NCBI GenBank assembly: GCA_963749705.1 | Contig: CAVVNQ010000015.1 | Coordinates: forward strand, 128,001 to 192,000 | Reading direction: 5' to 3' | Source of the DNA: an uncultured Chloroflexia bacterium | GTDB lineage: Bacteria > Chloroflexota > Limnocylindria > Limnocylindrales > CSP1-4 | Length of the DNA: 64,000 nt | In this document: piece after piece, positions 3,853 through 45,606 of the stretch | Layout: each line of letters begins with the position of its first letter | Position numbering within the stretch: the stretch's first letter is position 1 | The notes under the pieces: model-generated | Seen by the model: the letters and a program-made list of their open reading frames with translations, nothing else | What the model was told of the DNA's origin: nothing | The model's database searches: none | Made by a program: the position numbers and the translations under genes

Positions 3853-4524
3853 GTGATGCCGGAGCGCCGCACCGTGGACGCCGTCCTGTTCGATCTCGAC
3901 GGGGTTCTGGTGGATACCGAGCCGTGGTGGGACGAGGTGCGTCACGCGTTCGCGGTCGAGCACGGTCGGGCGTGGACCGACGCCGATCAGCGGGCGGTGA
4001 TGGGCGCCAACACCCGTCAGTGGGCGGCGATCATGCGGGAGCGTCTGGCGCTGACGGACGTCAGCGTCGACGCCATCGCGGGCGCGATCGTCGATGGCGT
4101 GCTCGCGCGGTATCGGGATGGCGCCCCCCGGGTCCTCCCCGGCGCCGTCGAGGCCGTCCGCCGGATCGCGTCGCACCGTCCTGTGGCGATCGCATCGTCG
4201 TCGCATCCCGTGCTCATCGAGGCGGCGGTCGACGCCCTCGACCTGGGCGACGTTCTCGGGGCCGCCGTGTCGTCCGATGAGGTCTCCCACGGCAAGCCCG
4301 CCCCGGACGTCTATCTGCTCGCGGGCTCGCGGCTGGGCGTCGAACCCGGGCGCTGCCTGGTCGTCGAGGACTCGCTCAACGGCGTCCGCGCCGGCAAGGC
4401 GGCGGGCATGACGGTGATCCTGGTCCCGAACCCGAGCGTGCCGCCGGCGGCCGGCGCGGAGGCGCTCGCGGATCTCGTGATCGAGCGCCTCGACGACCTC
4501 GATCCCGACGCGATCGAGCGCTGA
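3853..4524 (+). CDS. HAD-superfamily phosphatase (subfamily IA)
   Basis: FDLDGVLVDTE, ASSS, GKPAPDVY and VEDSLNGV motifs. Confidence 0.93.
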   Translation: MMPERRTVDAVLFDLDGVLVDTEPWWDEVRHAFAVEHGRAWTDADQRAVMGANTRQWAAIMRERLALTDVSVDAIAGAIVDGVLARYRDGAPRVLPGAVEAVRRIASHRPVAIASSSHPVLIEAAVDALDLGDVLGAAVSSDEVSHGKPAPDVYLLAGSRLGVEPGRCLVVEDSLNGVRAGKAAGMTVILVPNPSVPPAAGAEALADLVIERLDDLDPDAIER

Positions 4525-4555
4525 CCCGGGCGACGGCGGGCGCATACTGTCTGGC

Positions 4556-5314
4556 GTGGCCAGCCCTGCGGCGACCGGCCCCGTCCACCGGCCCTACCGC
4601 TTCCAATTCGTCCAGGTCGTCCTGACCGCGGTCGTGCGGCTCATCCTCCGGGTGCGTGTCGAGGGTCGACCGAACCTCGCGACCGGACCGGCGATCTACT
4701 GCTTCAATCACCTCAACTGGGCCGATCCGATCATCCTGCTGACCGTCCTGCCGGGGCGCCCGAGGCTGGCGATGTTCGGCCCCAAGGAGGCCGACATGCG
4801 TCGCGGCGCGCGAAACCGCCTGATCATGTGGGCGGGGTTCGGGATCCCGTACAAGCCCGACAAGCACGACCTGATCGAGATCACCCGCCGTGTGCAGCGG
4901 ATCCTCGAGGACGGATGGGTGATCGTGATCGCCGGGGAGGGCCGGATCCATCGCGGGGAGCGCGAGCTGCTGCCCCTGGCGGGCGGCACCGCCTACTTCG
5001 CGCTGCGCGCCGGCGTCCCGATCATCCCCGTCGCCATCAACGGCAGCAGCTGGCTCGGGTTCCGGCGCCTGGTCAGGATCCGGATCGGCGAGCCGATCGC
5101 CCCGGAGGGTCGGGCGACCCGCGAGCACGTGGCGGCCATCACCGCCCGGACGGAGGCGGCGCTCCGGGCCATGACCTCGGACTTCGCCGATCCGGGCGAG
5201 CCCGGCCGCTTCGGCCGATGGCTGACCGAGCTGTTCAACGACTGGCCGGAGGGTGCCCGCCCGACCCTCGGGGCAGGCGATGCCGCCGCGACGGGGCAGG
5301 GGAGCGCAGGCTGA
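4556..5314 (+). CDS. Lysophospholipid acyltransferase (PlsC family)
   Basis: NHLNWAD (HX4D), GEGRI, GVPIIPVAING. Confidence 0.85.
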   Translation: MASPAATGPVHRPYRFQFVQVVLTAVVRLILRVRVEGRPNLATGPAIYCFNHLNWADPIILLTVLPGRPRLAMFGPKEADMRRGARNRLIMWAGFGIPYKPDKHDLIEITRRVQRILEDGWVIVIAGEGRIHRGERELLPLAGGTAYFALRAGVPIIPVAINGSSWLGFRRLVRIRIGEPIAPEGRATREHVAAITARTEAALRAMTSDFADPGEPGRFGRWLTELFNDWPEGARPTLGAGDAAATGQGSAG

Positions 5315-5373
5315 CTTCCGGCTGACCCCCGGGTGTGGCATCCTGCTGCCGACGACCTGACGCAGGAGGATCC

Positions 5374-5739
5374 GTGGAAGCAACCGGCCTTTCCGCCGAC
5401 GCCAAGGAGTACCGCGCCCGCCTTGCGGAGCAATCGGACGCCCAGATCGACTCCTGGGCCGCGGAGCTGATGCGCGACATCGCCATCCGCCGCGGCGTCG
5501 TGCGCGTCGTCGAGGACTTCCGGGCCGCGGCCGGGCTCGATCCGCGGGCATTCGAACGGGTGTTCGCTTCCGGCGGCGGGCCGCCCGATGTGGTGGGACG
5601 CACCGCCGCGGGCAAGCTCATGGTCCCGGCGACGACCCTGTGGGCGCTGGTCCCGGGCATCCGGACGCAGGTCGCAGACGGCCGCGAGCGCCTGATCGCC
5701 TACCTCGTCGCCAACTTCGACGAGCTCGTCTACGTCTGA
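5374..5739 (+). CDS. Hypothetical protein
   Basis: GGAGGA RBS before GTG 5374, GC3-biased codons, co-oriented in the cluster. Confidence 0.7.
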   Translation: MEATGLSADAKEYRARLAEQSDAQIDSWAAELMRDIAIRRGVVRVVEDFRAAAGLDPRAFERVFASGGGPPDVVGRTAAGKLMVPATTLWALVPGIRTQVADGRERLIAYLVANFDELVYV

Positions 5740-5821
5740 CGAACCGGCCGGCGCGCTCGACGTCATCGAGATCGCGACCGACCTGCCGTCCATCCCGGCA
5801 GCCGCTCGCCTGGCGGGCGCA

Positions 5822-6667
5822 TTGAGGCTGGTCCACCCGTTCCCCTCGGTGCTCAACGGCGTCGTCGTGGCGCTGGTTGCGGCGGTGGCCGGGGGAGCAC
5901 CCGAGCGGGCGGCCATGCTGGGCATCTCGATGACGCTGCTGCAGTTCTCGATCGGGGCCCTCAACGACGTGACCGATATCCATCGCGATGCGGACCGCTC
6001 GCGCGACAAGCCCATCCCGGGCGGCGTCGTGTCCGAGCCCGTCGCGCGAGCCGTGGTCGCCGCGTGCGCCGCGGCAGGTCTCGGGCTTGCGCTCATCGCA
6101 GGCCCCGCGCTGCTGCTGCTGGCGGTGGTCGGCCTCGCCACGGGCGTGGTCTACGACCTGAGGGTCCGTGGGACGACCCTGTCGTGGCTCCCGATCGCGG
6201 TCGGGATCCCGCTGCTCCCCGTATACGGCTGGTTCGGGGCGACCGGGACGCTGCCTGGCGTGTTCCTCGTGCTCGTGCCGGCCGCAGCCAACGCCGGGAC
6301 CGCGCTTGCCATCGCCAACGCCATCGTCGACATGGAACACGACGAGACGGCCGGGAACGGCTCGATCGCTCTCGCGCTCGGGGCAGGCCTCGCGTCCGCG
6401 CTGGTCCTCGCCCTGCATGCCGTCGTCGCGGCGCTGGCGCTCGGGACGGCCGTGGTGCTCGGTGCCCCGGGAGGCTGGCTGGCGGCCATGCTGCTCGCCG
6501 CCGGGGCGCCGATCGCGGGGGCGTTGGTGGGGATCGGCGGCGCGGTCCGCCGCAGCCCAACGCTCCACGAGCTGGCCTGGGAGATCCAGGCACTCGGCAC
6601 CGGGCTGCTGGCGGTCGCCTGGCTGGGTGCGCTGAGCGCCTCGAGCAGTCCCATGGCGGGCGCCTGA
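5822..6667 (+). CDS. UbiA-family prenyltransferase (start uncertain, possibly ACG 5732)
   Basis: LNDVTDIHRD..KPIPGG and DMEHD aspartate motifs; multiple TM helices. Confidence 0.85.
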   Translation: MRLVHPFPSVLNGVVVALVAAVAGGAPERAAMLGISMTLLQFSIGALNDVTDIHRDADRSRDKPIPGGVVSEPVARAVVAACAAAGLGLALIAGPALLLLAVVGLATGVVYDLRVRGTTLSWLPIAVGIPLLPVYGWFGATGTLPGVFLVLVPAAANAGTALAIANAIVDMEHDETAGNGSIALALGAGLASALVLALHAVVAALALGTAVVLGAPGGWLAAMLLAAGAPIAGALVGIGGAVRRSPTLHELAWEIQALGTGLLAVAWLGALSASSSPMAGA

Positions 6668-6859
6668 GGCGTCGGGACCCGAGGCGTCGGGCCCCCGCGG
6701 CCGGGCCCGCGGGTGCGTCCGCGACGCCCGACGCCGGTCCGGTGTTGCGCGCACGCGCACACCGTCGTCCGGGGTGCGCAGGACGGATGTACCCCTAACG
6801 ACCTTCACGGCTGACTCGTTACCATGAGCACAGCCACCTTGAACCGAGGTTTTCTATTG

Positions 6860-7508: not shown

Positions 7509-8516
7509 CTAGCGATCGGTGTCCCCGCTGCGGACCACGGCGATGGCGTTCTCGAGCCGCAGCTTCGCGATCGTCAGGTACTTCGCGAGATTGCTCCGGT
7601 CGATGGGGCCGATCGCGTCGAGGACCTCCGGGTTGCGGAGCATGTCCAGGAAGTCCTCGACCGCCTCGTTGAGCTGCTGCTTGGCGGTGACGAGCGAGTC
7701 ATCGCGCATGGGCGTCGCGGGCCGCGTTCCGTGTCCTGCCCAGTCACCCGCCTCCGCGTCCGGGATGTCGGTGGCCGCGACATCCGGCTGGTCCGTCGTC
7801 TCGGCCGGCAGCCTGGCCGGCCGGCCCTCGATCCGCTCACGGAGCTTGACCAGGGACAGCTCGTTGCGGGCGACCTGGTCGGCCAGCCGGCGGCGCTTCT
7901 TGGGGTCCTGGACCTTCATCAGCTCGTAGGCGTGGGACAGCGTGTCCTTGCGCAAAGACACGAGCTCGCGGACCTCGGGCGGTGCGTCGGCCAGCCGGAG
8001 CCGGTTCTCGAGATATCCCTTGTCCTTGCCCAGCTTCTCGGCGAGTCTGCGGATGCTGTATCCGTGGTCCCGGATCATGCGGTCGTACATCGCCGCCTCG
8101 TCGAGCGGCGAGATGTCCTCGCGCTGGAGGTTCTCGATGATCGAGATCTCGAGCGCCGTATCGTCGTCGATGTCCTCGACCAGCGCGGGGATCGTCGGGC
8201 GCCCTGCGATCTTCGAGGCTCGCCATCGGCGTTCGCCGGCGATCAGCTGGTAGCGCCCGTCGTCGAGCGGGCGAACGAGGATCGGCTGGAGCACACCATG
8301 CTCGCGGATCGACGCGGCCAGCTCCTCGAGCGTCGCCTCGTCGAACGCGAGGCGCGGCTGCTCCGGATTGGAATCGATGTGATCCGTCTCGATCACCTTC
8401 ACGCCGGTCGACCTGCGGTTCATGTCCGGCGACAGGAGGCTGACGATCGCGGGCGGAAGCTCCCGATCCTCGGACAGTCGGCGGGCGGCGGCGGCGCGGA
8501 AATCAGGCCTGGCCAA
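7509..8516 (-). CDS. parB: ParB/Spo0J partition protein
   Basis: [34 protein letters not shown] (CTPase motif), [12 protein letters not shown]. Confidence 0.95.
7941..7962. promoter_or_regulatory. Palindromic site copy 1 (candidate parS), inside parB
   Basis: CGTGTCCTTGCGCAAAGACACG, 22-bp palindrome with 1 mismatch. Confidence 0.65.
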
Positions 8517-9279
8517 GTTCGATCACCTCCCGGGCGAGTTCGCGGTAGCTGCGAGCGGCTTCGGACGATCCGGCGTACGACGTGATGGGACGCCCGGCAA
8601 GCGGCGCCTCGCCCAGCTTCACGGTGTTGCGGATGATGGTGGTGAACACGTGGTGGTCACCCACCACTCGCAGCTCGTCGAGCATGTCCCGCGCCAGGTT
8701 GGTCCGGCCGTCGTAGAACGTCGGCAGCAGGCCCAGGATCCGGAGGTCCCGGTTGAGCTTCAGCCGGATCGCGTTGATGACCTTGACCAGGTTGTTGAGT
8801 CCCTTCATCGCGTAGAACTGCGTCTGGACGGGAATGATCACGCTGTCGGCGGCTGCCAGGCCATTGACCGTCAGGAGACCGAGGTTGGGCGGACAGTCGA
8901 TCAGCACGTAGTCGTACGGGTCGACCGCGTCGCGCATCGCCTCGCGCAGGATCTGCTCACGGCCCAACGCGGTGAACAGTTCGCCCTCGGTGCTGGCGAG
9001 GTCGATGTGCGCCGGTGCGACATCGATGCCGGCCGTCTCGGTCGCGAGGATCACCTCGGGGAGCGTCGATCGCCCGTCGGCGAGGACATCGGCCATGGAT
9101 CGCTGGACGGTGTTGAGGTTGACGCCCAGCCCCGCGGTGAGGTTCGCCTGCGGATCCATGTCGATCAGGAGCACTCGGCAGCCCTCCTCGGCCAGCGCTC
9201 CCGCAAGGTTGATCGCGGTCGTTGTCTTGCCAACGCCACCCTTCTGGTTGGCGATCGCGATCACGTGCGACAAGGACAT
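8503..9279 (-). CDS. parA: ParA/Soj-family ATPase
   Basis: [12 protein letters not shown] deviant Walker [17 protein letters not shown]; overlaps the parB start. Confidence 0.95.
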
Positions 9280-9371
9280 CACCTCGAAATGGAACAGCTG
9301 CGGCGCGGGGCCGGATTGCAGCGGGGGTGGTGCGAATGCTACCGCGAGGGCGTCGCCCTGCGGACGCGAGG

Positions 9372-9413
9372 TTGTCCACACAATGACCCAGTTGTGCACC
9401 GTTCTGTGGATAT
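9372..9413. promoter_or_regulatory. DnaA-box cluster upstream of parA
   Basis: TTGTCCACA (9372-9380), degenerate TTGTGCACC (9392-9400), TGTGGATAT (9405-9413, reverse orientation). Confidence 0.6.
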
Positions 9414-9581
9414 CCGTGGCCCGCGCATGCGCCACGGGCGCGGGTCGAAATGCACCTGTAACACCTCGTTGATCCAGCGCGAACAATGATGGGCCCATCG
9501 ACGGCAATGCCCGTGACGCGGGTCGACGCTGCCCAGGCCGCGAGCCGCGCGTGCCCGAGGCCTATGATTGGGGCGTCCCGC

Positions 9582-9599
9582 CGTCTTTGCGCAAGGACG
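9582..9599. promoter_or_regulatory. Palindromic site copy 2 (candidate parS)
   Basis: CGTCTTTGCGCAAGGACG, intergenic between parA and pccB. Confidence 0.65.
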
Positions 9600-9630
9600 C
9601 GCGTTCACGCCATCGGAGGAGTCCAGCGAC

Positions 9631-11184
9631 GTGCCCAACAACGCGGATCGGATCGCCCGGCTCGAGCGGATGCGCGCGGAGGCGCTCCAGGGTGGCGGCC
9701 CGGTGCGGATCGAGCGACAGCATGCCTGGGGAAAGCTGACGGCCCGGGAGCGGCTCGACCTGTTGCTCGACGCCGGCTCGTTCGTCGAGATGGATGCGTT
9801 CGTGATGCCGCGCGCCACGGCGACGGGTCTCGATCGCCAGCAGTTTCTGGGCGATGGGGTGGTCACCGGTCACGGCACGATCGACGGACGACTGGTGTTC
9901 GTGTTCAGCCAGGACTTCACGGTGTTCGGTGGGTCGCTGTCGGAGGCGTACGCCGAGAAGATCTGCAAGGTCATGGATCTCGCGATGAAGGTGGGCGCAC
10001 CGGTCATCGGGCTCAACGACTCCGGCGGTGCGAGGATCCAGGAGGGCGTCGCGTCGCTCGGTGGCTACGCCGAGATCTTCCTGCGCAACGTGATGGCATC
10101 CGGGGTGGTGCCCCAGATCTCCGTCATCCTAGGCCCGTGCGCGGGCGGTGCCGTCTACTCGCCCGCGATGACCGACTTCACCGTGATGGTGGAGGGGACG
10201 AGCTACATGTTCGTGACCGGTCCCAACGTGGTCAAGGCGGTCACCCACGAAGAGGTCGACTCCGAGGCGCTGGGCGGCGCCGCGGTGCACACGGGTCGCA
10301 GCGGGGTCGCGCACCTCGCGGCACGCGACGAGGCGGAGGCGATGGACTACGCCCGCCGAGTCCTCGCATATCTGCCGCAGAACAACCTGTCGGATCCGCC
10401 GCGCGCGGAAGCGAGCGATCCGCGCAACCGCATGGACCCGGAGCTCGATGCGGTGGTCCCGGACGAGCCCTCGAGGCCGTACGACATGCACGAGGTCCTG
10501 CGCCGTGTCGTCGACGACGGTGACTTCCTCGAGATCCAGCCGGCATGGGCGGGCAACATCATCGTCGGGTTCGCGCGGCTGGGCGGCCGGCCGGCCGGGA
10601 TCGTTGCGCAGCAGCCCGCCGTCCTTGCCGGCGCCCTGGACATCGACGCGTCGAACAAGGCCGCGCAATTCGTCCGGACGTGTGATGCGTTCAACGTGCC
10701 GCTGGTCACGTTCGTCGACGTGCCGGGGTTCCTGCCGGGCGTCGGCCAGGAGCACAACGGGATCATCAAGCACGGAGCCAAGCTGCTGTACGCGTACTGC
10801 GAGGCGACGGTCCCCAAGGTGACCGTCATCACGCGCAAGGCGTACGGCGGCGCCTACGACGTCATGAGCAGCAAGCACATCCGCGGCGACATGAACTTCG
10901 CGTGGCCGACGGCGGAGATCGCGGTGATGGGCGCCGAGGGCGCGGTCAACATCATCTTCAAGGACTCGATCGCGGGAGCGGACGATCCCGCGGCCGAGCG
11001 CAGTCGGCTGGTGGCGGAGTATGAGGACGAGTTCTCCAACCCGTACATCGCCGCGGGTCGCGGGTACATTGACGAGGTGATCCTTCCGCACGAGACGCGA
11101 CCGCGCCTGATCCGGGCGCTCGAGGTCCTCGCCGACAAGCGCGACACCAACCCGAAGAAGAAGCATGGCAACATCCCGCTCTGA
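9631..11184 (+). CDS. pccB: Acyl-CoA (propionyl-CoA) carboxylase carboxyltransferase subunit
   Basis: [46 protein letters not shown] terminus; GGAGGA RBS. Confidence 0.92.
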
Positions 11185-11196
11185 CGACGACGCGGT

Positions 11197-11212
11197 GTCG
11201 TTGCGCAAAGAC
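11197..11212. promoter_or_regulatory. Palindromic site copy 3 (candidate parS)
   Basis: GTCGTTGCGCAAAGAC in the 48-bp gap after pccB. Confidence 0.6.
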
Positions 11213-11232
11213 GCCCGCGCCGGGTCCGCCCG

Positions 11233-12828
11233 ATGACCGGCCGCGAGACGCCGTTTCGTCGCGTCCTGATCGCCAACCGCGGCGAGATCGCGGTCCGCAT
11301 CATCCGGGCCTGCCACGAGATGGGGATCGAGGCTGTCGCGGTGTACAGCGACGCCGACACGACGGCGGCCCACGTCCGTCTCGCCGACGTCGCGGTCCGG
11401 ATCGGGCCACCCGCGCCGACGGAGAGCTACCTCCGGATCGATGCCGTGGTCCAGGCGGCGATCGACACGGGCGCCGAGGCGATCCATCCCGGGTACGGCT
11501 TCCTCGCCGAGCGCGCGGCGTTCGCGCGCGCCGTCGAGGACGCGGGCCTCGTGTTCGTGGGCCCCGCGTCGGCCACCATCGAGGCCCTGGGCGACAAGCT
11601 CCACGCCCGACGGCTGGCGGCCAGGATCGATGTGCCGTCAGTGCCCGGGACCCTCGAGCCCGCTCCCGTCGATCGCCCGGACCAGGTCGCGGACATCGTC
11701 GCCACCGCGCGGACCATCGGCTTTCCGCTGCTGGTCAAGGCGGCCGCCGGCGGGGGAGGGCGGGGGATGCGTCGGGTCCTTCATGCCGACGATCTTGCCG
11801 CGGCGCTCGTCTCCGGGTCGCGCGAGGCTGCATCCGCGTTCGGTGACGGGTCCGTCTACCTGGAGCGCGAGATCCTCCCGGCGCGACATGTCGAGGTTCA
11901 GCTGCTCGGCGACGCCCACGGCAACGTCGTCGCGCTGGGAGAGCGCGACTGCTCGCTCCAGCGGCGTCACCAGAAGCTCGTGGAGGAGGCCCCCGCGCCC
12001 GGCCTGACCCCGGATCAGCGCCGGGAGCTGCACGAGCGCGCCGTGCGCCTGGCCCGCGCGGCCGACCTGCGCAACGCTGCCACCTGCGAGTTCCTGTATG
12101 ACACCGACGGTCGGTTCTGGTTCCTCGAGGTCAACACGCGGCTCCAGGTGGAGCACGGCGTGACCGAGCTCGTCACCGGCGTCGACATCGTTCGCGAGCA
12201 GCTCTGGATCGCCGCGGGCCGGCCCCTGTCGCCCGAGGTGGTTGCGGCCGGCGAGCGCGCGGCAGCGCCATCGAGCCACGCGATCGAGGTCCGGATCGCG
12301 GCCGAGGATCCGTCACGAGCGTTCGCCCCAACGCCCGGCCGGATCGGGCGGTGGGTGATGCCTGCCGGGCCCGGGATCCGGGTCGACACGGGGATCGAGG
12401 CTGACGACCTCGTGCCCCCGGACTACGACAACCTGATCGCCAAGCTGATGGTCCACGCGAACGATCGTGACGCGGCGATCGACCGGCTTGGACGGGCGCT
12501 GGACGAGACGGAGATCGGTGGCGTGCAGACGACGCTGCCCTTCCACCGGTTCGTCGCGCACAGCGACGCCTTCCGCGACGGCGAGCTGTCGACGGGTTGG
12601 GTGGACGGGCACTGGGACGGCGAGGCGGCCCGCGCGCAGGCAGCTCGAGTCGCGCTGCGCGCCGCGGGCCTGGCCGCGATCGCGGGTGACCTGGATGGCG
12701 TGGCACCGGTTGCAGCATCCCGCGCCCCGCTTGGTGCGGATGGCGCGCTCGCCGCCGAGTCTGCTGACGGCGCACGGGCGTGGCGTCGGTCGGGCCGCGC
12801 GCATGGGGTCGATCGATGGCCGAGCTGA
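11233..12828 (+). CDS. Biotin carboxylase subunit
   Basis: LIANRGEIAVR, IHPGYGFLAE, GGGGRGMR, RDCSLQRRHQK, EVNTRLQVEH. Confidence 0.93.
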   Translation: MTGRETPFRRVLIANRGEIAVRIIRACHEMGIEAVAVYSDADTTAAHVRLADVAVRIGPPAPTESYLRIDAVVQAAIDTGAEAIHPGYGFLAERAAFARAVEDAGLVFVGPASATIEALGDKLHARRLAARIDVPSVPGTLEPAPVDRPDQVADIVATARTIGFPLLVKAAAGGGGRGMRRVLHADDLAAALVSGSREAASAFGDGSVYLEREILPARHVEVQLLGDAHGNVVALGERDCSLQRRHQKLVEEAPAPGLTPDQRRELHERAVRLARAADLRNAATCEFLYDTDGRFWFLEVNTRLQVEHGVTELVTGVDIVREQLWIAAGRPLSPEVVAAGERAAAPSSHAIEVRIAAEDPSRAFAPTPGRIGRWVMPAGPGIRVDTGIEADDLVPPDYDNLIAKLMVHANDRDAAIDRLGRALDETEIGGVQTTLPFHRFVAHSDAFRDGELSTGWVDGHWDGEAARAQAARVALRAAGLAAIAGDLDGVAPVAASRAPLGADGALAAESADGARAWRRSGRAHGVDRWPS

Positions 12829-13544
12829 CCACGGCTGTGCCCACCGATGGCCATGACCGGAGCGAGGACGCCGCGGCGGTGGCTGCGCCCGTGGCCGACG
12901 ATCCCCGGGCGGTCCGCGTCCGGCTCGCACCTGGATCGCAGCTCGGCGACGAGCCGGTGCTCCGCGTCGCGCCGGCGGCCGAGGTCCTCCAGCCGTCGAA
13001 CCCGACCGTCGGCGTCGGTCCGCTCGGTGGGGCCGCAGCTCCGGCCGCCGAGCCGGAGGGCGGGACTGTCCGTGCGCAAAGACACCCGCTGCTGGACGGC
13101 CAGGCCACTGATGCCGCGCTCCAGACCCTCGGGCGGGGACGGCTCATCCTCGACGAGGCCGGTCGTCGCACCCGCGTGGTGCTCGAGCCATACCGGGCCG
13201 CGCCGGGCCGCGTCGTGGTCCGGGAGGTCCTGGTCGACGGCTTCCGGTTCGAGGTGGAGCTGGAGCCCGAGCGGATCGCCGCCCTCCGCGAGCGGGCGAC
13301 CAAGGGCCGCGAGTCGAGCGCCCACCGCGGGCCGCTCGAGGTCCGGGCGATCATCCCGGGCAAGGTCGTGGCCGTGTCCGTGGGCCCCGGCGACGAGGTC
13401 ACGGCGGGCCAGCAGCTGCTGGTGGTCGAGGCGATGAAGATGCAGAACGAGCTGCGGGCGCCGCGGGATGGCACGATCGACCGGGTCGCGGTTGCGCAGG
13501 GCGTCAACATCGAGGTCGGCGACCTGCTGATGGTCATCAGCTGA
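12816..13544 (+). CDS. Biotin carboxyl carrier protein with N-terminal extension
   Basis: C-terminal EAMKMQNE biotinylation motif. Confidence 0.88.
13068..13083. promoter_or_regulatory. Palindromic site copy 4 (candidate parS), inside the biotin carrier gene
   Basis: GTCCGTGCGCAAAGAC (2 mismatches to consensus), flanked by T and A. Confidence 0.5.
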
Positions 13545-13555
13545 CGGAGGTATCG

Positions 13556-15226
13556 GTGAGCGACGAGGCAACGGCGGATCCGGCGGTCGAGCGCTGGCGT
13601 GCCACGACGCGCGCCCGCGCGCTGGCCGCGTCGCCGGAGCACGGGCGGTTCGCGACGACCTCGGAGATCCCGATCGCCGACGTCTACACCCCCGCCGACG
13701 TCGATGACCTGGATCCCGCCCGGGACCTGGGCCTGCCGGGCGAGTACCCGTTCACGCGCGGCGTCCAGCCGACCATGTACCGATCGCGGCTGTGGACGAT
13801 GCGCCAGTACGCCGGGTTCGCGACGGCGGCCGAGACCAACGAGCGGTTCCGGTACCTGCTGTCGCAGGGGCAGACGGGGCTGTCCGTCGCGTTCGACCTG
13901 CCAACCCAGATGGGCTACGACGCCGATGCCCCGGAGGCCGAGGGCGAGGTCGGCCGGGTGGGCGTCCCGGTCTCGTCGCTCGCCGACATGGAGGTCCTGT
14001 TCGCCGGCATCCCGTTGGGCGAGGTCAGCACCTCGATGACGATCAATGCCACGGCTCCCATCCTGCTCGCGCTGTACGTCGCGGCGGCGGAGAAGCAGGG
14101 GGTCGCGCGGGCGGCCGTGTCGGGGACCACCCAGAACGACATCCTCAAGGAGTACATCGCCCGCGGCACCTGGATCTACCCGCCTCGGGTATCGATGCGG
14201 CTGGTCACCGACGTGTTCGAGTTCGCCACCCGCGAACTGCCCCGCTGGAACACGATCAGCATCTCCGGGTACCACATGCGCGAGGCCGGGGCGACCGCCG
14301 CCCAGGAGCTGGCGTTCACGCTTGCCGACGGCATCGCCTACGTCGAGGCGGCGCTGTCCCGCGGGCTCGCCGTGGACGACGTCGCGCCCCGGCTGTCGTT
14401 CTTCTTCGCAGCGTGGTCGGAGCTGTTCGAGGAGGTCGCGAAGTTCCGGGCCGCGCGCCGGATGTGGGCGCGGATCATGAAGGAGCGGTTCGGCGCATCG
14501 AACGCTCGTTCGATGATGTGCCGGTTCCATACGCAGACGGCCGGGTCCTCGCTGACCGCCCAGTCGATCGACAACAACGTGGTCCGCACCACGCTCCAGG
14601 CCCTCGCCGCCGTCCTCGGGGGAACCCAGAGCCTGCACACGAACTCGCGCGACGAGGCGCTCGCGCTGCCGACGGCCGAGGCCGCGCGGCTCGCGCTCCG
14701 GACGCAGCAGATCATCGCCCACGAGGCGGGCGTGACCGAGACCCCGGACCCGCTGGCGGGGTCGTACTTCGTGGAGTCGCTGACCAGCGAGCTCGAGGCG
14801 GCCGCGTCCGCCTACCTCGACGAGATCGACGCGATGGGCGGCACGCTCTCGGCGATCGAGGGCGGCTTCCAGCAGCGGCAGATCCAGGAGTCGGCCTACC
14901 GGGTCCAGCGGGAGATCGAGCGTGGCGACCGCATCGTGGTCGGCGTCAACCGGTACCGGGACGAGGACACGCCGACGCGACCGGCGCTCCAGCGGATCGA
15001 CCCGGACGGCGAGCGGCGCCAGGTTGCCGGGATCCGCGCGGTTCGCGACGGGCGCGATCCCGCTGCCTGGGACCGGGCCATGCGCCGCCTCGAGGACGAG
15101 GCCCGCGGGGAGGCCAACCTGCTGCCCGCGATCATCGAGGCCGTCGCGGCCTACGCCACCGTGGGCGAGATCGCCGACCGCCTGCGGACGACCTGGGGCG
15201 TCCATCGCGAGCTGATCACGGTCTGA
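13556..15226 (+). CDS. Methylmalonyl-CoA mutase, substrate-binding large subunit (no B12-binding domain)
   Basis: [50 protein letters not shown]. Confidence 0.92.
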
Positions 15227-15238
15227 GGAGGCCCTCGC

Positions 15239-15721
15239 ATGCCGGATCTGCCGGATTCCACACACCTGCCCGCCGCGATCGGCCGGCTGGGGCGGGTCCA
15301 TCACGTCGCGGTCATCGTGTCGGACCTGGACCGGGCGCTCGGCTTCTGGCGCGATGCGCTTGGCCTGCCGGTCGAGCTGGTGCTGCCGATCGAGACCGAC
15401 GGCGTCACCATCGCGTTCCTGCCGGTGGGGGAGTCGAAGGTCGAGCTGGTGATGCCGACCGACGATACGACGGGCGTGGCGCGCTTCCTGGCCAGCAAGG
15501 GCGAGGGGTTCCACCACGTGTGCTTCGAGGTCGCGAACCTCGCCGAGACGCTGCTGCGGCTGGAGGTCGACGGCATCGAGCTGATCGACAGCGCCCCCCG
15601 GAAGGGTGCCGAGGGGCCGGTCGCCTTCCTCCATCCCAGGTCGTGCCACGGCGTGCTGGTCGAACTGATCGAGGCGCCCGGCGGTCCCTCCTGGCCGATC
15701 CTCGGCTATCCGCCCGCCTGA
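15239..15721 (+). CDS. mce: Methylmalonyl-CoA epimerase
   Basis: VOC fold HHVAV..VEL..GEGFHHVCFEV..FLHP..GVLVELIE, next to the mutase. Confidence 0.9.
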   Translation: MPDLPDSTHLPAAIGRLGRVHHVAVIVSDLDRALGFWRDALGLPVELVLPIETDGVTIAFLPVGESKVELVMPTDDTTGVARFLASKGEGFHHVCFEVANLAETLLRLEVDGIELIDSAPRKGAEGPVAFLHPRSCHGVLVELIEAPGGPSWPILGYPPA

Positions 15722-23785: not shown

Positions 23786-24132
23786 GCCAGCGAGACGGCC
23801 GGATGGTCGCGCGGCTGCCGGGCAACCGTCAGCCGTGAGGAAAGTCCGAGCTCCTCAGCGCGGGGTAGCGGGTAACGCCCGTCCGCCGTGAGGCGAGGAC
23901 CAGTGCCACAGTGACGATGCCGGCCATCGAGGCCGGAGTGAAACGCGGCAAACTCTACCCGGAGCAAGGCCAAATAGGAGGGCGCAACCCCGGTTCGCCG
24001 GGGGGAGAGGTGCGCTGCCCAGCCCTCGGGTCGGCTGCATGAGCCGTCGGGCAACCGGCGGCCTCAGATGGATGACCGTCGCCGCGGCGCGAGTCGCGGT
24101 ACAGAACTCGGCTTACAGGCCGCCTCGCTGGC
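23786..24132 (+). ncRNA. rnpB: RNase P RNA
   Basis: GAGGAAAGTCC, CGGCAAACTCTACCCGGAGCAAGGCCAAATAGG and CAGAACTCGGCTTA conserved blocks. P1 pairing GCCAGCGAG/CTCGCTGGC. TACAAT -10 at 23774-23779. Confidence 0.95.

Positions 24133-45529: not shown

Positions 45530-45606
<77 letters not shown>

Follow-up and report, generated by a model that had tools for sequence, protein, structure and literature searches.

The locus described here raises the question of which DNA sites are served by a ParA and ParB pair (ParA2 and ParB2) whose genes lie among near-copies of a 16-bp palindrome. The pair is encoded in a 64-kb window, meaning the whole stretch of DNA that was analysed, from an uncultured member of Candidatus Limnocylindria, and a first-pass annotation had proposed the palindromes as a lineage-specific centromere for this ParB. 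That proposal is supported by the clustering of the motif at the locus and by its co-occurrence with ParB2, whereby ParB2 would bind and segregate the sites. The locus is probably a second, lineage-specific ParABS (ParA2, ParB2 and parS2) on the main chromosome of this class, separate from and orthogonal to ParA1, ParB1 and canonical parS.

Four palindromic sites and selection on their DNA

A scan of the window at up to three mismatches returned exactly four matches to GTCTTTGCGCAAAGAC, at the same coordinates and with the same sequences as the palindromes first picked out by eye, and agreed with the accompanying remark that no further copy is present (Table 1). The cluster spans 5.2 kb, with 0.11 matches expected by chance and four matches in 0 of 100 shuffles. 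In the entire 3,595,848-base assembly these are the sole copies at up to two mismatches, all at the parAB2 locus rather than scattered, and a scan at three mismatches added one unrelated match on contig C8. A position matrix of 309 distinct sites extends the motif to 18 bp (Y-GTC-YT-TGCGCA-AR-GAC-R).

Table 1. Coordinates of parS2 sites, genes and candidate promoter elements within the window
Feature	Position	Strand	Description or basis
parB2	7509..8516	-	ParB/Spo0J-family protein, 335 aa
parS2 site 1, GTCCTTGCGCAAAGAC	7944..7959	.	within parB2
parA2	8503..9279	-	Soj-type ParA ATPase, 258 aa
GTAGCATTC (as read on - strand)	9335..9343	-	putative -10 of parA2-parB2 promoter; 13-row gap alignment
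DnaA box TTGTCCACA	9372..9380	+	upstream of parA2
DnaA box TTGTGCACC, 2 mismatches	9392..9400	+	upstream of parA2
DnaA box ATATCCACA	9405..9413	-	upstream of parA2
TATGAT	9563..9568	+	putative -10 of pcc operon promoter; gap alignment
parS2 site 2, GTCTTTGCGCAAGGAC	9583..9598	.	parA2-pccB gap
pccB	9631..11184	+	Pfam/NCBIfam
parS2 site 3, GTCGTTGCGCAAAGAC	11197..11212	.	pccB-biotin carboxylase gap, 48 nt
Biotin carboxylase	11233..12828	+	Pfam/NCBIfam
Biotin carboxyl carrier ORF	12780..13544	+	contains site 4; Pfam/NCBIfam
parS2 site 4, GTCCGTGCGCAAAGAC	13068..13083	.	variable N-terminal part of the carrier ORF
Methylmalonyl-CoA mutase	13556..15226	+	Pfam/NCBIfam
Candidate methylmalonyl-CoA epimerase, glyoxalase fold	15239..15721	+	Pfam/NCBIfam

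Two of the sites are read through as codons, site 1 as G TCT TTG CGC AAG GAC on the coding strand, encoding (V)SLRKD, and site 4 as GTC CGT GCG CAA AGA C. The impression that such codons are rare here is now backed by measurement across the 956 long open reading frames of the genome, in which TCT makes up 1.1% of serine, TTG 2.8% of leucine, AAA 1.7% of lysine and AGA 0.7% of arginine codons. Among 80 distinct parB2 sequences, GTG (80/80), CGC (79/80) and GAC (80/80) are essentially fixed within the motif, and serine is encoded by TCT (45) or TCC (34) and never by the common TCG or AGC. The leucine codon is TTG in 69/75 (92%, against 2.8% genome-wide) and the lysine codon AAA in 34/77. These rare codons, set against the free variation of the codons flanking the motif, show that site 1 is under selection on the DNA.

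Each of the four copies is in a transcribed region, and folding of a 16-nt palindrome could give a 6-bp stem with a GCGC loop, so they could conceivably be RNA hairpins that serve the processing or stability of the parAB2 and pcc transcripts. This is extremely improbable, as sense-strand pairing at the sole variable stem positions (4/13 and 5/12) never exceeds the expectation under independent variation, the observed/expected values for positions 4/13 being 0.54/0.74, 0.49/0.59, 0.80/0.82 and 0.29/0.30 in slots 1 to 4. In slots 1, 2 and 4 a C-A mismatch is seen more often than any other state, and no Rfam family matches at the palindromes.

ParA2, ParB2 and neighbouring genes

ParB2 is laid out as a short N-terminal helix, a ParB/Srx domain carrying the invariant motifs GERRWRA and ENLQRED, a helix-turn-helix domain and, beyond a disordered linker, a C-terminal helical hairpin that belongs to no family. 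It matches Pfam ParB_N (E 1.8e-34) and HTH_ParB (E 4.5e-18), and its closest solved structures are Noc, Spo0J and ParB (E 1e-35 to 1e-40), with KorB at 4e-18. The AlphaFold model has a mean pLDDT of 78, with residues 1-36 and 235-266 below 50; from about residue 271 the last seven 10-residue blocks average 65-92, staying at no less than 80 as far as residue ~330. ParA2, whose gene overlaps parB2 by 14 nt, carries the deviant Walker A motif KGGVGKTT and matches Pfam AAA_31 (E 9.5e-63), and its closest solved structures are a ParA (8ray, 4e-62) followed by the Thermus and Helicobacter Soj proteins (1e-50 to 1e-55), with plasmid P1 ParA at 1e-13. The open frame of parA2 reaches 9507 (ORF 8503-9507); the alignment with orthologues begins at the ATG at 9279, which is preceded by GAGGTG and is very probably the true start. 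With Walker A, GERRWRA and ENLQRED intact, the two proteins are, on sequence grounds, a complete Soj/Spo0J-type pair.

The initial gene calls (parB, the parA frame, pccB, biotin carboxylase and biotin carrier) are confirmed by Pfam or NCBIfam matches. The block at 9631..15721 on the forward strand is interleaved with sites 2-4, and its order is identical in families f1 and f3. The wider neighbourhood encodes a HAD hydrolase, an acyltransferase, a UbiA prenyltransferase and a secreted protein with repeats. The RNase P RNA, a core gene, is also located within the window.

The orthodox ParABS beside dnaA

The first-pass annotation had seen no canonical parS, and indeed none lies in the window; two copies with one mismatch each occur elsewhere, at C3:241168 and C3:241305. 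On the same contig, yidC, dnaA, dnaN and recF occupy C3:185.5-192.5 kb; the gap between dnaA and dnaN contains three DnaA boxes, and gyrB, parB1, parA1 and the two canonical parS lie ~50 kb from this group. LGRGLDALIP and GERRVRA are present in ParB1, as is the usual C-terminal domain. The canonical parS partner is a separate, orthodox ParAB1 beside dnaA, on a different contig from the parAB2 locus in this assembly; with this origin ParABS present in the genome, the parAB2 locus is a second one.

In six other assemblies parB2 and dnaA share one contig, at distances of 0.76-1.78 Mb (G074 0.77, G062 0.76, G323 1.43, G001 1.49 and G292 1.78 Mb, and 1.33 Mb in G006, a single contig of 3.62 Mb), relative to dnaA alone, GC skew and gene-strand bias being too weak here to locate origin or terminus independently. 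The second ParABS is therefore on the same chromosome and far from the origin.

Distribution of ParB2 and its motif

Orthologues of ParB2 were found in all 33 sampled genomes of the class (Candidatus Limnocylindria in the record titles), scoring 316-562 bits, and in none of 268 other Chloroflexota, in which scores were at most 202 bits; within the class, 23/24 genomes of the genus and 16/16 of family f2 carry it. The ParB2 sequences form a single clade (SH-aLRT 94), within which the three families recovered for ParB1 appear again, and a long branch (support 99) parts them from ParB1 and other Chloroflexota ParBs. By this distribution and phylogeny, ParB2 is class-wide, vertically inherited and not a recent duplicate of ParB1. 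Strong purifying selection is evident on both proteins and on the sites across the class.

The motif follows ParB2 in relatives. At up to one mismatch it is present in 16/16 genomes of f1 and 13/15 of f3, i.e. 29/31 ParB2-bearing genomes, against 7/268 other Chloroflexota, all without ParB2 and with single scattered copies. For six genomes with fully listed matches at up to two mismatches, 16/16 lie within ~5 kb of parB2. Among loci reaching each slot, occupancy at up to three mismatches is 79/79, 73/73, 65/66 and 35/60 for sites 1 to 4, and 253/261 sites lie between -4.9 and +1.1 kb from the parB2 start. Family f3, with ParB2 at 53% identity, uses the same three slots, with that of site 3 filled in 8/8 loci. 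Operators are typically palindromes of such a length (16-18 bp) close to a promoter, and site 2 is promoter-proximal, so an unrelated transcription factor encoded elsewhere might own the motif, its proximity to parAB2 being incidental. Such an arrangement is very unlikely, given that all copies in a genome lie at the parAB2 locus, one of them within parB2 wherever that slot is reached, that the motif is restricted to ParB2-bearing genomes, and that no other DNA-binding protein gene is kept at the locus across f1, f3 and f2.

Losses within the class separate the motif from its metabolic neighbours. In genus g5 a full-length PccB-type carboxyltransferase was found in 0/3 genomes by a search with a positive control in G000, yet two sites remain, the first within parB2 and the other in the gap that precedes the mutase gene; conversely, the second PccB-like gene of the present genome, on contig C17, has no motif copy. 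The motif thus stays with parAB2 independently of the pcc genes, contrary to what a metabolic operator of propionate or biotin genes, an alternative that had been raised at the outset, would predict. In family f2, which has small genomes, the motif has decayed: the gap retains a half-site and a single copy with 4 mismatches, parB2 contains no site, and the rest of the genome has no cluster. Here 8/14 examined loci are without parA2 while parB2 is intact, and hence ParB2 must have a ParA-independent role.

Promoter elements and alternative functions

With the DnaA-box consensus TTRTCCACA, which in this genome singles out the dnaA-dnaN gap as well, three boxes were identified upstream of parA2, that at 9372 being one of only 7 exact matches in the genome. 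Within 330 nt upstream of parA2, at least one box is present in 93/101 related loci and at least two in 89/101. In a 13-row alignment of the gap, GTAGCATTC is invariant or nearly so, and TATGAT or TATCAT occurs in 13/13 loci, 14-16 nt before site 2 in 12 of them (14 nt here); a sigma-70 scan gave no consensus match at either candidate promoter. A pcc -10 at TATGAT would put site 2 at transcript positions of roughly +8 to +23. Site 2 precedes the pccB start codon by 32 nt in this genome (median 32, range 13-65 in f1) and lies 111-368 nt from the parA2 start across loci; in f3 it is immediately upstream of TATACT, followed by a tRNA-Met gene and pccB.

This operator-like placement of site 2, with three of the four sites within the pcc operon, counts against partition, and because site 2 adjoins the pcc promoter a KorB-like role deserves weight. 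ParB2 might mainly be a transcriptional regulator that loads at the palindromes to silence or time the divergent propionyl-CoA carboxylase (pcc)/methylmalonyl-CoA mutase operon and its own operon, with ParA2 as cofactor in the manner of IncC for KorB and segregation of no importance. ParB-family regulators are known from KorB and from V. cholerae ParB2 on rctA, as given in the cited accounts (PMC7022226, PMC3688505, PMC3141006), and parB2 divergently adjoins the mutase-epimerase genes in all three families, even where parA2 is missing. This reading is nonetheless unlikely. Both proteins are Soj/Spo0J-type and not KorB-type, Pfam KorB scoring below its cut-off; the best-conserved site lies within parB2, ~1.3 kb downstream of any promoter and kept by rare codons; the distance to pccB differs by family (~30 nt in f1 against ~127 nt in f3); and the C17 PccB-like gene lacks a site. 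Mutase adjacency in g5 and f2 is not independent evidence of linkage, since it follows automatically from deletion of the intervening pcc genes, and a metabolic regulator would not usually retain its own Walker ATPase partner in nearly all genomes.

The conserved DnaA boxes, the length of the ParB2 branch and the distinct parS, which is typical of secondary replicons and resembles that of Burkholderia chromosome II, would also fit an ancient fusion, in the class ancestor, of a secondary replicon to the main chromosome. The locus would then be the partition module of that replicon, perhaps its origin too, and now either a relic kept for local reasons or part of an active second DnaA-dependent origin. 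Natural fused dicentric chromosomes are described for V. cholerae and Agrobacterium in the cited accounts (PMC12219848, 10.1101/2025.02.23.639760). This history is decidedly improbable, with no replication-initiator, plasmid or mobile gene among the annotated neighbours, proteins of chromosomal Soj/Spo0J type, no compared plasmid ParB above 43% identity, just two or three DnaA boxes with no evident AT-rich unwinding element, and the RNase P RNA in the same window; class-wide purifying selection argues against a mere relic.

A proposed model and comparison with known systems

The favoured reading, with moderate confidence, is a system for partition or clamp loading that is orthogonal to ParABS1 and inherited vertically. 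A diverged helix-turn-helix would let ParB2 dimers bind the 16-18 bp palindromes (YGTCYTTGCGCAARGACR), where they would shut into CTP-dependent clamps and then spread across the ~6 kb in which the two to four sites are found. A single partition complex would then form at a fixed mid-replichore place, about one-third of the chromosome from dnaA, and the Soj-type ATPase ParA2 would act on it through the short N-terminal helix of ParB2. The conserved boxes in the promoter region suggest that parA2-parB2 expression is probably tied to the replication initiator, and, as a secondary activity, the complex probably lowers, or sets the timing of, transcription from its own operon and the adjacent one. 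Beyond the first-pass annotation, the analysis adds the second system on the same chromosome, the class-wide conservation, the DnaA boxes at the locus and the position of site 2 beside the pcc promoter.

Unlike nearly all chromosomal parS, the parAB2 locus is not origin-proximal, a position that, like the decay of the motif and the loss of parA2 in f2, counts against the favoured reading. The diverged helix-turn-helix of ParB2 differs from that of ParB1 (GKARATVANTLRLL). Like known parS, parS2 is palindromic over 16 bp and has CG at its centre, here within a TGCGCA core. The mention in the first-pass annotation of a TGCGCA-centred parS for Burkholderia chromosome 2 proved correct, a review table giving gTTTATGCGCATAAAc with six sites (PMC7022226), and parS2 equals the Burkholderia cenocepacia chromosome II parS at 12/16 positions (PMC7022226, PMC5450999).

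Palindromic sites and gene content of a probable second partition locus

A scan of the window with GTCTTTGCGCAAAGAC, allowing up to three mismatches, returned exactly four matches, at the same positions and with the same sequences as the palindromes listed in the first-pass annotation, which had reported no further full copy (chance expectation 0.11; none of 100 shuffles reached four). That annotation had also asked for a scan of the whole assembly (G000; 3,595,848 bases in 22 contigs, approximately 71% G+C, with the window at C15:128001-192000), in which copies with at most two mismatches were confined to these four, a single cluster spanning 5.2 kb around parA2 and parB2, and the only addition at three mismatches was a single unrelated match on contig C8. 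In a matrix built from 309 distinct sites of related loci, the element is 18 bp long, Y-GTC-YT-TGCGCA-AR-GAC-R, with soft positions only at 4-5 and 12-13. It is identical to the canonical parS, TGTTTCACGTGAAACA, at 6 of 16 positions and differs from it at 10; the canonical sequence, reported as unseen in the window, is confined in G000 to the locus of the orthodox system, parA1-parB1. Judged by its sequence the element is parS-like in form, and is referred to as parS2. A reading of the palindromes as RNA hairpins was rejected on site variation.

Features of the probable second partition locus and of the remainder of the window
Feature	Position	Strand	Remarks
Acyltransferase	4556-5314	+	
Small unknown protein	5335-5739	+	
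UbiA prenyltransferase	5822-6667	+	
parB2	7509-8516	-	ParB_N, HTH_ParB
Palindromic site 1	7944		inside parB2
parA2, open reading frame	8503-9507	-	AAA_31, E 9.5e-63
parA2, gene	8503-9279	-	start used by orthologues
GTAGCATTC	9335-9343	-	conserved across the genus
DnaA box TTGTCCACA	9372		one of only seven exact TTRTCCACA in G000
DnaA box TTGTGCACC	9392		
DnaA box ATATCCACA	9405		inverted
TATGAT	9563-9568		conserved across the genus
Palindromic site 2	9583		parA2-pccB gap
pccB, biotin carboxylase, methylmalonyl-CoA mutase, glyoxalase-fold protein		+	beyond parA2
Palindromic site 3	11197		
Biotin carboxyl carrier	12780-13544	+	frame between carboxylase and mutase
Palindromic site 4	13068		inside the carrier frame
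RNase P RNA, class A	23791-24131		183.6 bits
tRNA gene	45530-45603		

The overlapping parA2 and parB2 genes form one operon, divergent from the propionyl-CoA carboxylase (pcc) operon. Alignments of ParA orthologues begin at the ATG at 9279, preceded by GAGGTG, and the gene was therefore delimited from there, leaving a parA2-pccB gap of approximately 350 bp; the open frame runs 76 codons upstream of this start, which all orthologues use, and automatic annotation could over-extend parA2 across the DnaA boxes. ParA2 carries the deviant Walker A motif of the Soj type (KGGxGK[ST], present as KGGVGKTT) and matches Soj structures with E values of 1e-50 to 1e-62, compared with approximately 1e-13 for P1 ParA, while ParB2 matches the Noc, Spo0J and ParB structures at 1e-35 to 1e-40, compared with 4e-18 for KorB; by sequence, both proteins belong to the chromosomal Soj/Spo0J class. 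In the ParB/Srx N-terminal domain, the CTP-binding motif GxRRxRA, present as GERRWRA, and the ENxxRxxL motif, present as ENLQRED, were invariant in all 28 ParB2 orthologues, and the HTH domain was present. Identity to ParB1 is 43% over the N-terminal and HTH domains, with an N-terminus (...IVSLLSP) and an HTH sequence unlike those of ParB1. An AlphaFold model predicts the C-terminal domain to be a helical hairpin with no family match (the last seven 10-residue blocks, from approximately residue 271, average 65-92, and at least 80 up to approximately residue 330), disorder at residues 1-36 and in the linker 235-266, and possibly a short arginine-rich helix at residues 6-15, modelled at low confidence.

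Downstream of parB2 are genes for a HAD hydrolase, an acyltransferase, a small unknown protein, a UbiA prenyltransferase and a secreted repeat protein, and no replication or mobility genes were found among these neighbours. Two minus-strand ORFs in the same region (5618-6808 and 4376-5551), considered as conserved unknowns, were discarded as antisense artefacts of a high-GC genome (GC3 0.74 and 0.66, arginine-rich), the real genes being those for the acyltransferase and the UbiA prenyltransferase on the plus strand. The ORF at 12847-13437 was likewise discarded as the carrier gene, being in the wrong frame. The true carrier frame overlaps the carboxylase end by 49 nt and its first approximately 150 residues are of low complexity; where the gene truly begins is uncertain, and a start downstream of site 4 is possible. 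Site 4 sits in the variable N-terminal part of the carrier on the codons CGT, CAA and AGA. Elsewhere in the window, the RNase P RNA and tRNA genes belong to the core gene set, which fits an assignment of the window to the main chromosome.

The motif follows ParB2

Within the genus, 23 of 24 genomes hold three to six copies of the motif with at most two mismatches, compared with none or one for a reversed control pattern, and the copies listed lie no more than a few kb from parB2 on its own contig, apart from a few strays. Scattering of the motif across the genome, named in the first-pass annotation among the findings that would refute a centromere reading, was not seen in the six genomes with complete listings, in which all 16 copies lay at the locus. 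At one mismatch or fewer, the co-occurrence with the ParB2 clade that the annotation had proposed to check held in two of the three families (f1 to f3) of the class Ca. Limnocylindria, with copies in all 16 genomes of f1, to which G000 belongs, in 13 of 15 of f3 and in neither of the two of f2; among other Chloroflexota it was found in 7 of 268, as single scattered copies. Slot occupancy was counted at 80 public loci with up to three mismatches, among those loci that reach each slot, and the slot was filled inside parB2 (79 of 79), in the parA2-pccB gap (73 of 73), in the pccB-carboxylase gap (65 of 66) and after the carboxylase (35 of 60). Across 1.1 Mb of locus sequence, 253 of 261 sites fall in the interval from -4.9 to +1.1 kb relative to the start of parB2. 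Loci of f3, where ParB2 is only 53% identical, have two or all of the first three slots filled: both gap slots at 8 of 8 loci and the parB2 slot at 7 of 8. The locus is probably an orthogonal second ParABS.

The suggestion that rare codons at the intragenic copies reflect selection on the DNA was borne out by codon counts at site 1, which encodes the ParB2 residues (V)SLRKD, in 80 distinct parB2 orthologues with f2 left out. The codons GTG and GAC are present in 80 of 80 and CGC in 79 of 80; serine is encoded by TCT (45) or TCC (34) and never by TCG or AGC, which together account for 74% of serine codons genome-wide. Leucine is encoded by TTG in 69 of 75 (2.8% genome-wide) and lysine by AAA in 34 of 77 (1.7% genome-wide), while the codons flanking the site vary freely. 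Nearly every site-1 sequence contains exactly one perfect half-site, the pairs at positions 4/13 being C4/A13 (36) or T4/G13 (34) as opposed to T/A (7) or C/G (2), a pattern expected where the demands of a dimeric DNA-binding protein compete with coding constraints. Together with the co-occurrence of motif and ParB2, this selection on the DNA is indirect support for ParB2 as a specific binder of parS2 that may load as a CTP-dependent clamp.

Promoter-proximal site 2 and DnaA boxes

An association of the motif with propionate or biotin genes, as a metabolic operator, had been named as an alternative to a centromere. Genus g5 has no PccB-type carboxyltransferase in any of three genomes (93-94% complete), and there parB2-parA2 face the mutase gene and keep two sites, in parB2 and in the gap, which are the sole copies in those genomes. 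G000 itself has two such carboxyltransferases, the second being a full-length gene at C17:13276-14715 (517 bits), near which the G000 scan found no copy of the palindrome. Both observations indicate that the motif stays with parAB2 and not with pcc. The adjacency of the mutase gene in g5 and f2 results from deletion of the intervening genes and is not independent evidence of functional linkage.

A regulatory side to the sites is nonetheless plausible. In f1, site 2 is positioned 13-65 nt (median 32) before the pccB start, and TATGAT is conserved 14-16 nt upstream of it in 12 of 13 aligned loci; in f3, TATACT directly follows site 2 and is followed in turn by a tRNA-Met gene and pccB. This tRNA-Met (CAT) gene, at L130:8745-8820 and likewise in the f3 loci L131-L137, is crowded into approximately 260 bp together with a DnaA box, the palindrome, TATACT and a further DnaA box. 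TATGAT and GTAGCATTC read like candidate -10 elements of the two divergent operons, and a sigma-70 consensus scan found no promoter. One of the two main rivals to an orthogonal second ParABS is accordingly that ParB2 is a KorB-like regulator, for which the closeness of site 2 to TATGAT and the pccB start argues; most parS2 sites, however, are away from promoters, and we regard this explanation as unlikely.

DnaA boxes (at most one mismatch, within 330 nt upstream of parA2) were counted at 101 related loci with parA2, of which 93 have at least one and 89 at least two, compared with an expectation of approximately 0.03. They form a pair or trio approximately 95-130 nt upstream (related loci L035-L141), typically at approximately -95 and -128 from the parA2 start codon, and were not found in the five f2 loci with enough upstream sequence. 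The 9-mers were compared with the DnaA-box consensus, the relevance of which is supported by the cluster of matches in the dnaA-dnaN gap. Their arrangement suggests DnaA control of the parA2-parB2 promoter, an origin-like element being less likely.

The orthodox system and chromosomal position

By tblastn, G000 contains exactly two ParB genes and two close ParA genes. The orthodox pair, parA1-parB1, is on contig C3 beside gyrB, with canonical parS sites of one mismatch each at C3:241168 and C3:241305, just upstream of parA1, and with yidC, dnaA, dnaN and a recF-like gene approximately 50 kb away; the dnaA-dnaN gap holds three DnaA boxes with at most one mismatch. ParB1 has the motifs LGRGLDALIP, GERRVRA and ENVQRADL and the usual C-terminal domain, and canonical parS adjoins dnaA in all five genomes checked.

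The origin was taken as dnaA together with the DnaA-box cluster and parS1. In the single-contig genome G006 (3,624,741 bases), dnaA is at 1,072,196, parB1 at 1,028,680 and parB2 at 3,365,627, the shorter arc between dnaA and parB2 being 1.33 Mb, or 37% of the chromosome. Where the two genes share a contig in other genomes, they are 0.76 Mb (G062), 0.77 Mb (G074, contig of 2.24 Mb), 1.43 Mb (G323), 1.49 Mb (G001) and 1.78 Mb (G292) apart. The locus is thus not origin-proximal in any of the six shared-contig assemblies, with parB2 0.76-1.78 Mb from dnaA, roughly 35-42% of the chromosome in all six when genome sizes are rounded. GC skew and gene-strand bias in the G000 contigs were too weak to confirm the origin or locate the terminus: skew is almost flat on C3, C15 and others (approximately 0.01 absolute), with no strand-bias switch even at dnaA, and compositional origin mapping fails in this lineage. 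G006 also has two identical-scoring IstB-like (IS21 helper) matches, at C1:1270622 and 3344547, which are probably IS copies; one is approximately 21 kb from parB2.

Distribution and descent of ParB2

Within the genus, a ParB2 orthologue with 76-97% identity was found in all but one of the 24 genomes, the lone exception being 68% complete, and all 16 f2 genomes (1.0-1.4 Mb) have one at approximately 50% identity. A second, weaker match of 38-47% identity, taken as ParB1, was present in 36 of the 40 genomes with a match, the remaining four (G008, G012, G021 and G037) having the ParB2-type match only. A ParB2 profile scored 316-562 bits in all 33 class genomes sampled (16 f1 including G000, 2 f2 and 15 f3) and no more than 202 bits in the 268 other Chloroflexota sampled, which include one genome flagged unpublished (G184). 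A reference-genome scan identified 566 loci encoding a relative, the best 80 of which are 69-97% identical, and a protein homologue search returned close relatives only (80-95% identity).

In a tree of 33 ParB cores, with two rows left out, ParB2 forms one clade (SH-aLRT 94) that splits into f3, f2 and f1, the three families of ParB1, while ParB1 groups with other Chloroflexota ParBs across a long branch with support of 99. A recent plasmid origin of ParB2 is unsupported, no plasmid ParB exceeding 43% identity. Together, the class-restricted profile scores, the family-congruent tree and this ceiling on plasmid identity indicate that ParB2 is old, vertically inherited and confined to the class. 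The other main rival, that the locus is a fused-replicon module or a second origin, is improbable, since neither a second initiator at the locus nor a close plasmid relative was seen. The highest score outside the class (202 bits) came from a ParB-like gene at G064:C452 (L151), which in the tree falls with ParB2, at the end of a very long branch, and may be another non-canonical ParB. Literature searches turned up no publication on ParB in Limnocylindria, nor any describing two ParABS systems naturally conserved on one chromosome, although such papers may exist.

Family f2 forms a natural series. Six of 14 loci keep parA2, with a ParB2 starting MAKPDFRAAA and a gap containing GTCTTCGCACACGGAC, which is a degenerate site, and TGTCTTTG, which is a conserved half-site; the other eight (L027-L034) have lost parA2, their ParB2 starts MPKGK or MPKGR, and no recognisable site was found. 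Relaxed patterns and a palindrome search across f2 returned only a 4-mismatch copy and the half-site, both in the parA2-mutase gap of parA2-bearing genomes, and the conserved 2-mismatch matches in ileS and near dprA/topA equal the control rate and are therefore attributed to chance. GERRWRA and ENLQRE are kept at 14 of 14 loci, and from those without parA2 it seems that ParB2 has some ParA-independent role.

Proposed role and significance

A more tentative proposal than an orthogonal second ParABS, which we consider possible but doubtful, is that chromosomes of the class are naturally and stably dicentric, with the ordinary system at the origin and a DnaA-controlled parAB2 marking a fixed mid-replichore locus approximately 35-42% of the chromosome from dnaA. 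There it would segregate or organise the chromosome arm, for example as a second SMC-loading or anchoring point, or alternatively would serve as a positional landmark or cell-cycle timer; in a bolder form of this proposal, the DnaA boxes of parA2 would be part of a second replication origin. Chromosomal parS is held to be near-universal in sequence and origin-proximal. A complete second ParABS with a private centromere would break both rules, having been kept away from the origin, on the same chromosome, through the history of the class. If so, these lineages would offer a natural experiment on ParB-parS divergence and insulation in one cell, similar to Noc but with a ParA partner, and would show the effect of a second centromere on chromosome organisation, with f2 adding a natural series of loci that retain an intact parB2 as parA2 and the sites decay. 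Pairs of ParB and parS from Burkholderia already serve for DNA labelling, and ParB2 with its 16-18 bp site is a candidate orthogonal pair for this purpose and for plasmid stabilisation.

Comparison with known systems

The second system shares with canonical chromosomal ParABS a Soj-type ParA, a Spo0J-type ParB with CTP-binding motifs, overlapping genes, and several 16-bp palindromes around parAB, one of them inside parB. Origin-proximal parS is the chromosomal rule, as stated in review passages and generally understood. The second system differs from canonical ParABS in the parS2 sequence, in its distance of 0.76-1.78 Mb from dnaA and in the N-terminal peptide and C-terminal domain of ParB2, and in that an orthodox system is present on the same chromosome.

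In site sequence there is a resemblance to Burkholderia. The TGCGCA-centred parS of Burkholderia chromosome 2, mentioned in the first-pass annotation, appears as gTTTATGCGCATAAAc in a review table (PMC7022226), and parS2 is identical to this B. cenocepacia chromosome II site at 12 of 16 positions. Bsr-type (Burkholderiales secondary replicon) parS is described in PMC5450999 as a palindrome of 16 bp whose 5' arm is T-rich and whose 6-bp core contains 2C/2G/1A/1T with a central CG, a description that fits parS2 with its core TGCGCA. The B. cenocepacia chromosome II system also coexists with a canonical system in one cell (PMC7022226, PMC5450999), presumably insulated from it, but it is carried on a separate replicon of plasmid ancestry whereas parAB2 is on the main chromosome. 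The Bsr likeness of parAB2 is accordingly one of site sequence and not of secondary-replicon location, as no second replicon and no close plasmid relative were found for parAB2, with Burkholderia plasmid ParB matches approximately 30% identical.

Noc, the nucleoid occlusion protein of Firmicutes and the closest solved relative of ParB2 by sequence (E 1.4e-40), is likewise a ParB paralogue restricted to its lineage, acting on the main chromosome with an altered DNA specificity. However, Noc lacks a ParA partner and its NBS sites are dispersed around the chromosome, whereas parB2 has an adjacent ParA2 and one tight cluster of sites; ParB2 was rejected as a Noc on these grounds and on its TIGR04285 score (188 bits, cut-off 315 bits). 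KorB/IncC, with its OB operators on IncP plasmids, similarly combines a ParB-family protein, palindromic sites at promoters and an adjacent ParA-type partner, and could by analogy serve as a model for site 2 with its promoter-proximal position. In contrast to those plasmid systems, parAB2 is chromosomal and its relation to KorB distant (E 4e-18), and ParB2 was rejected as a KorB-type repressor, scoring 20 bits against the Pfam KorB cut-off of 22.3 bits with one of four sites at a promoter; no KorA-like gene was found at the locus.

The fused dicentric chromosomes of Vibrio cholerae and Agrobacterium also carry two different ParABS systems on one DNA molecule, and V. cholerae ParB2 is described as having regulatory side functions also. 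No second initiator was seen at the parAB2 locus. Those fusions are recent, strain-level events that have kept a second initiator and origin, whereas the arrangement described here is conserved class-wide.
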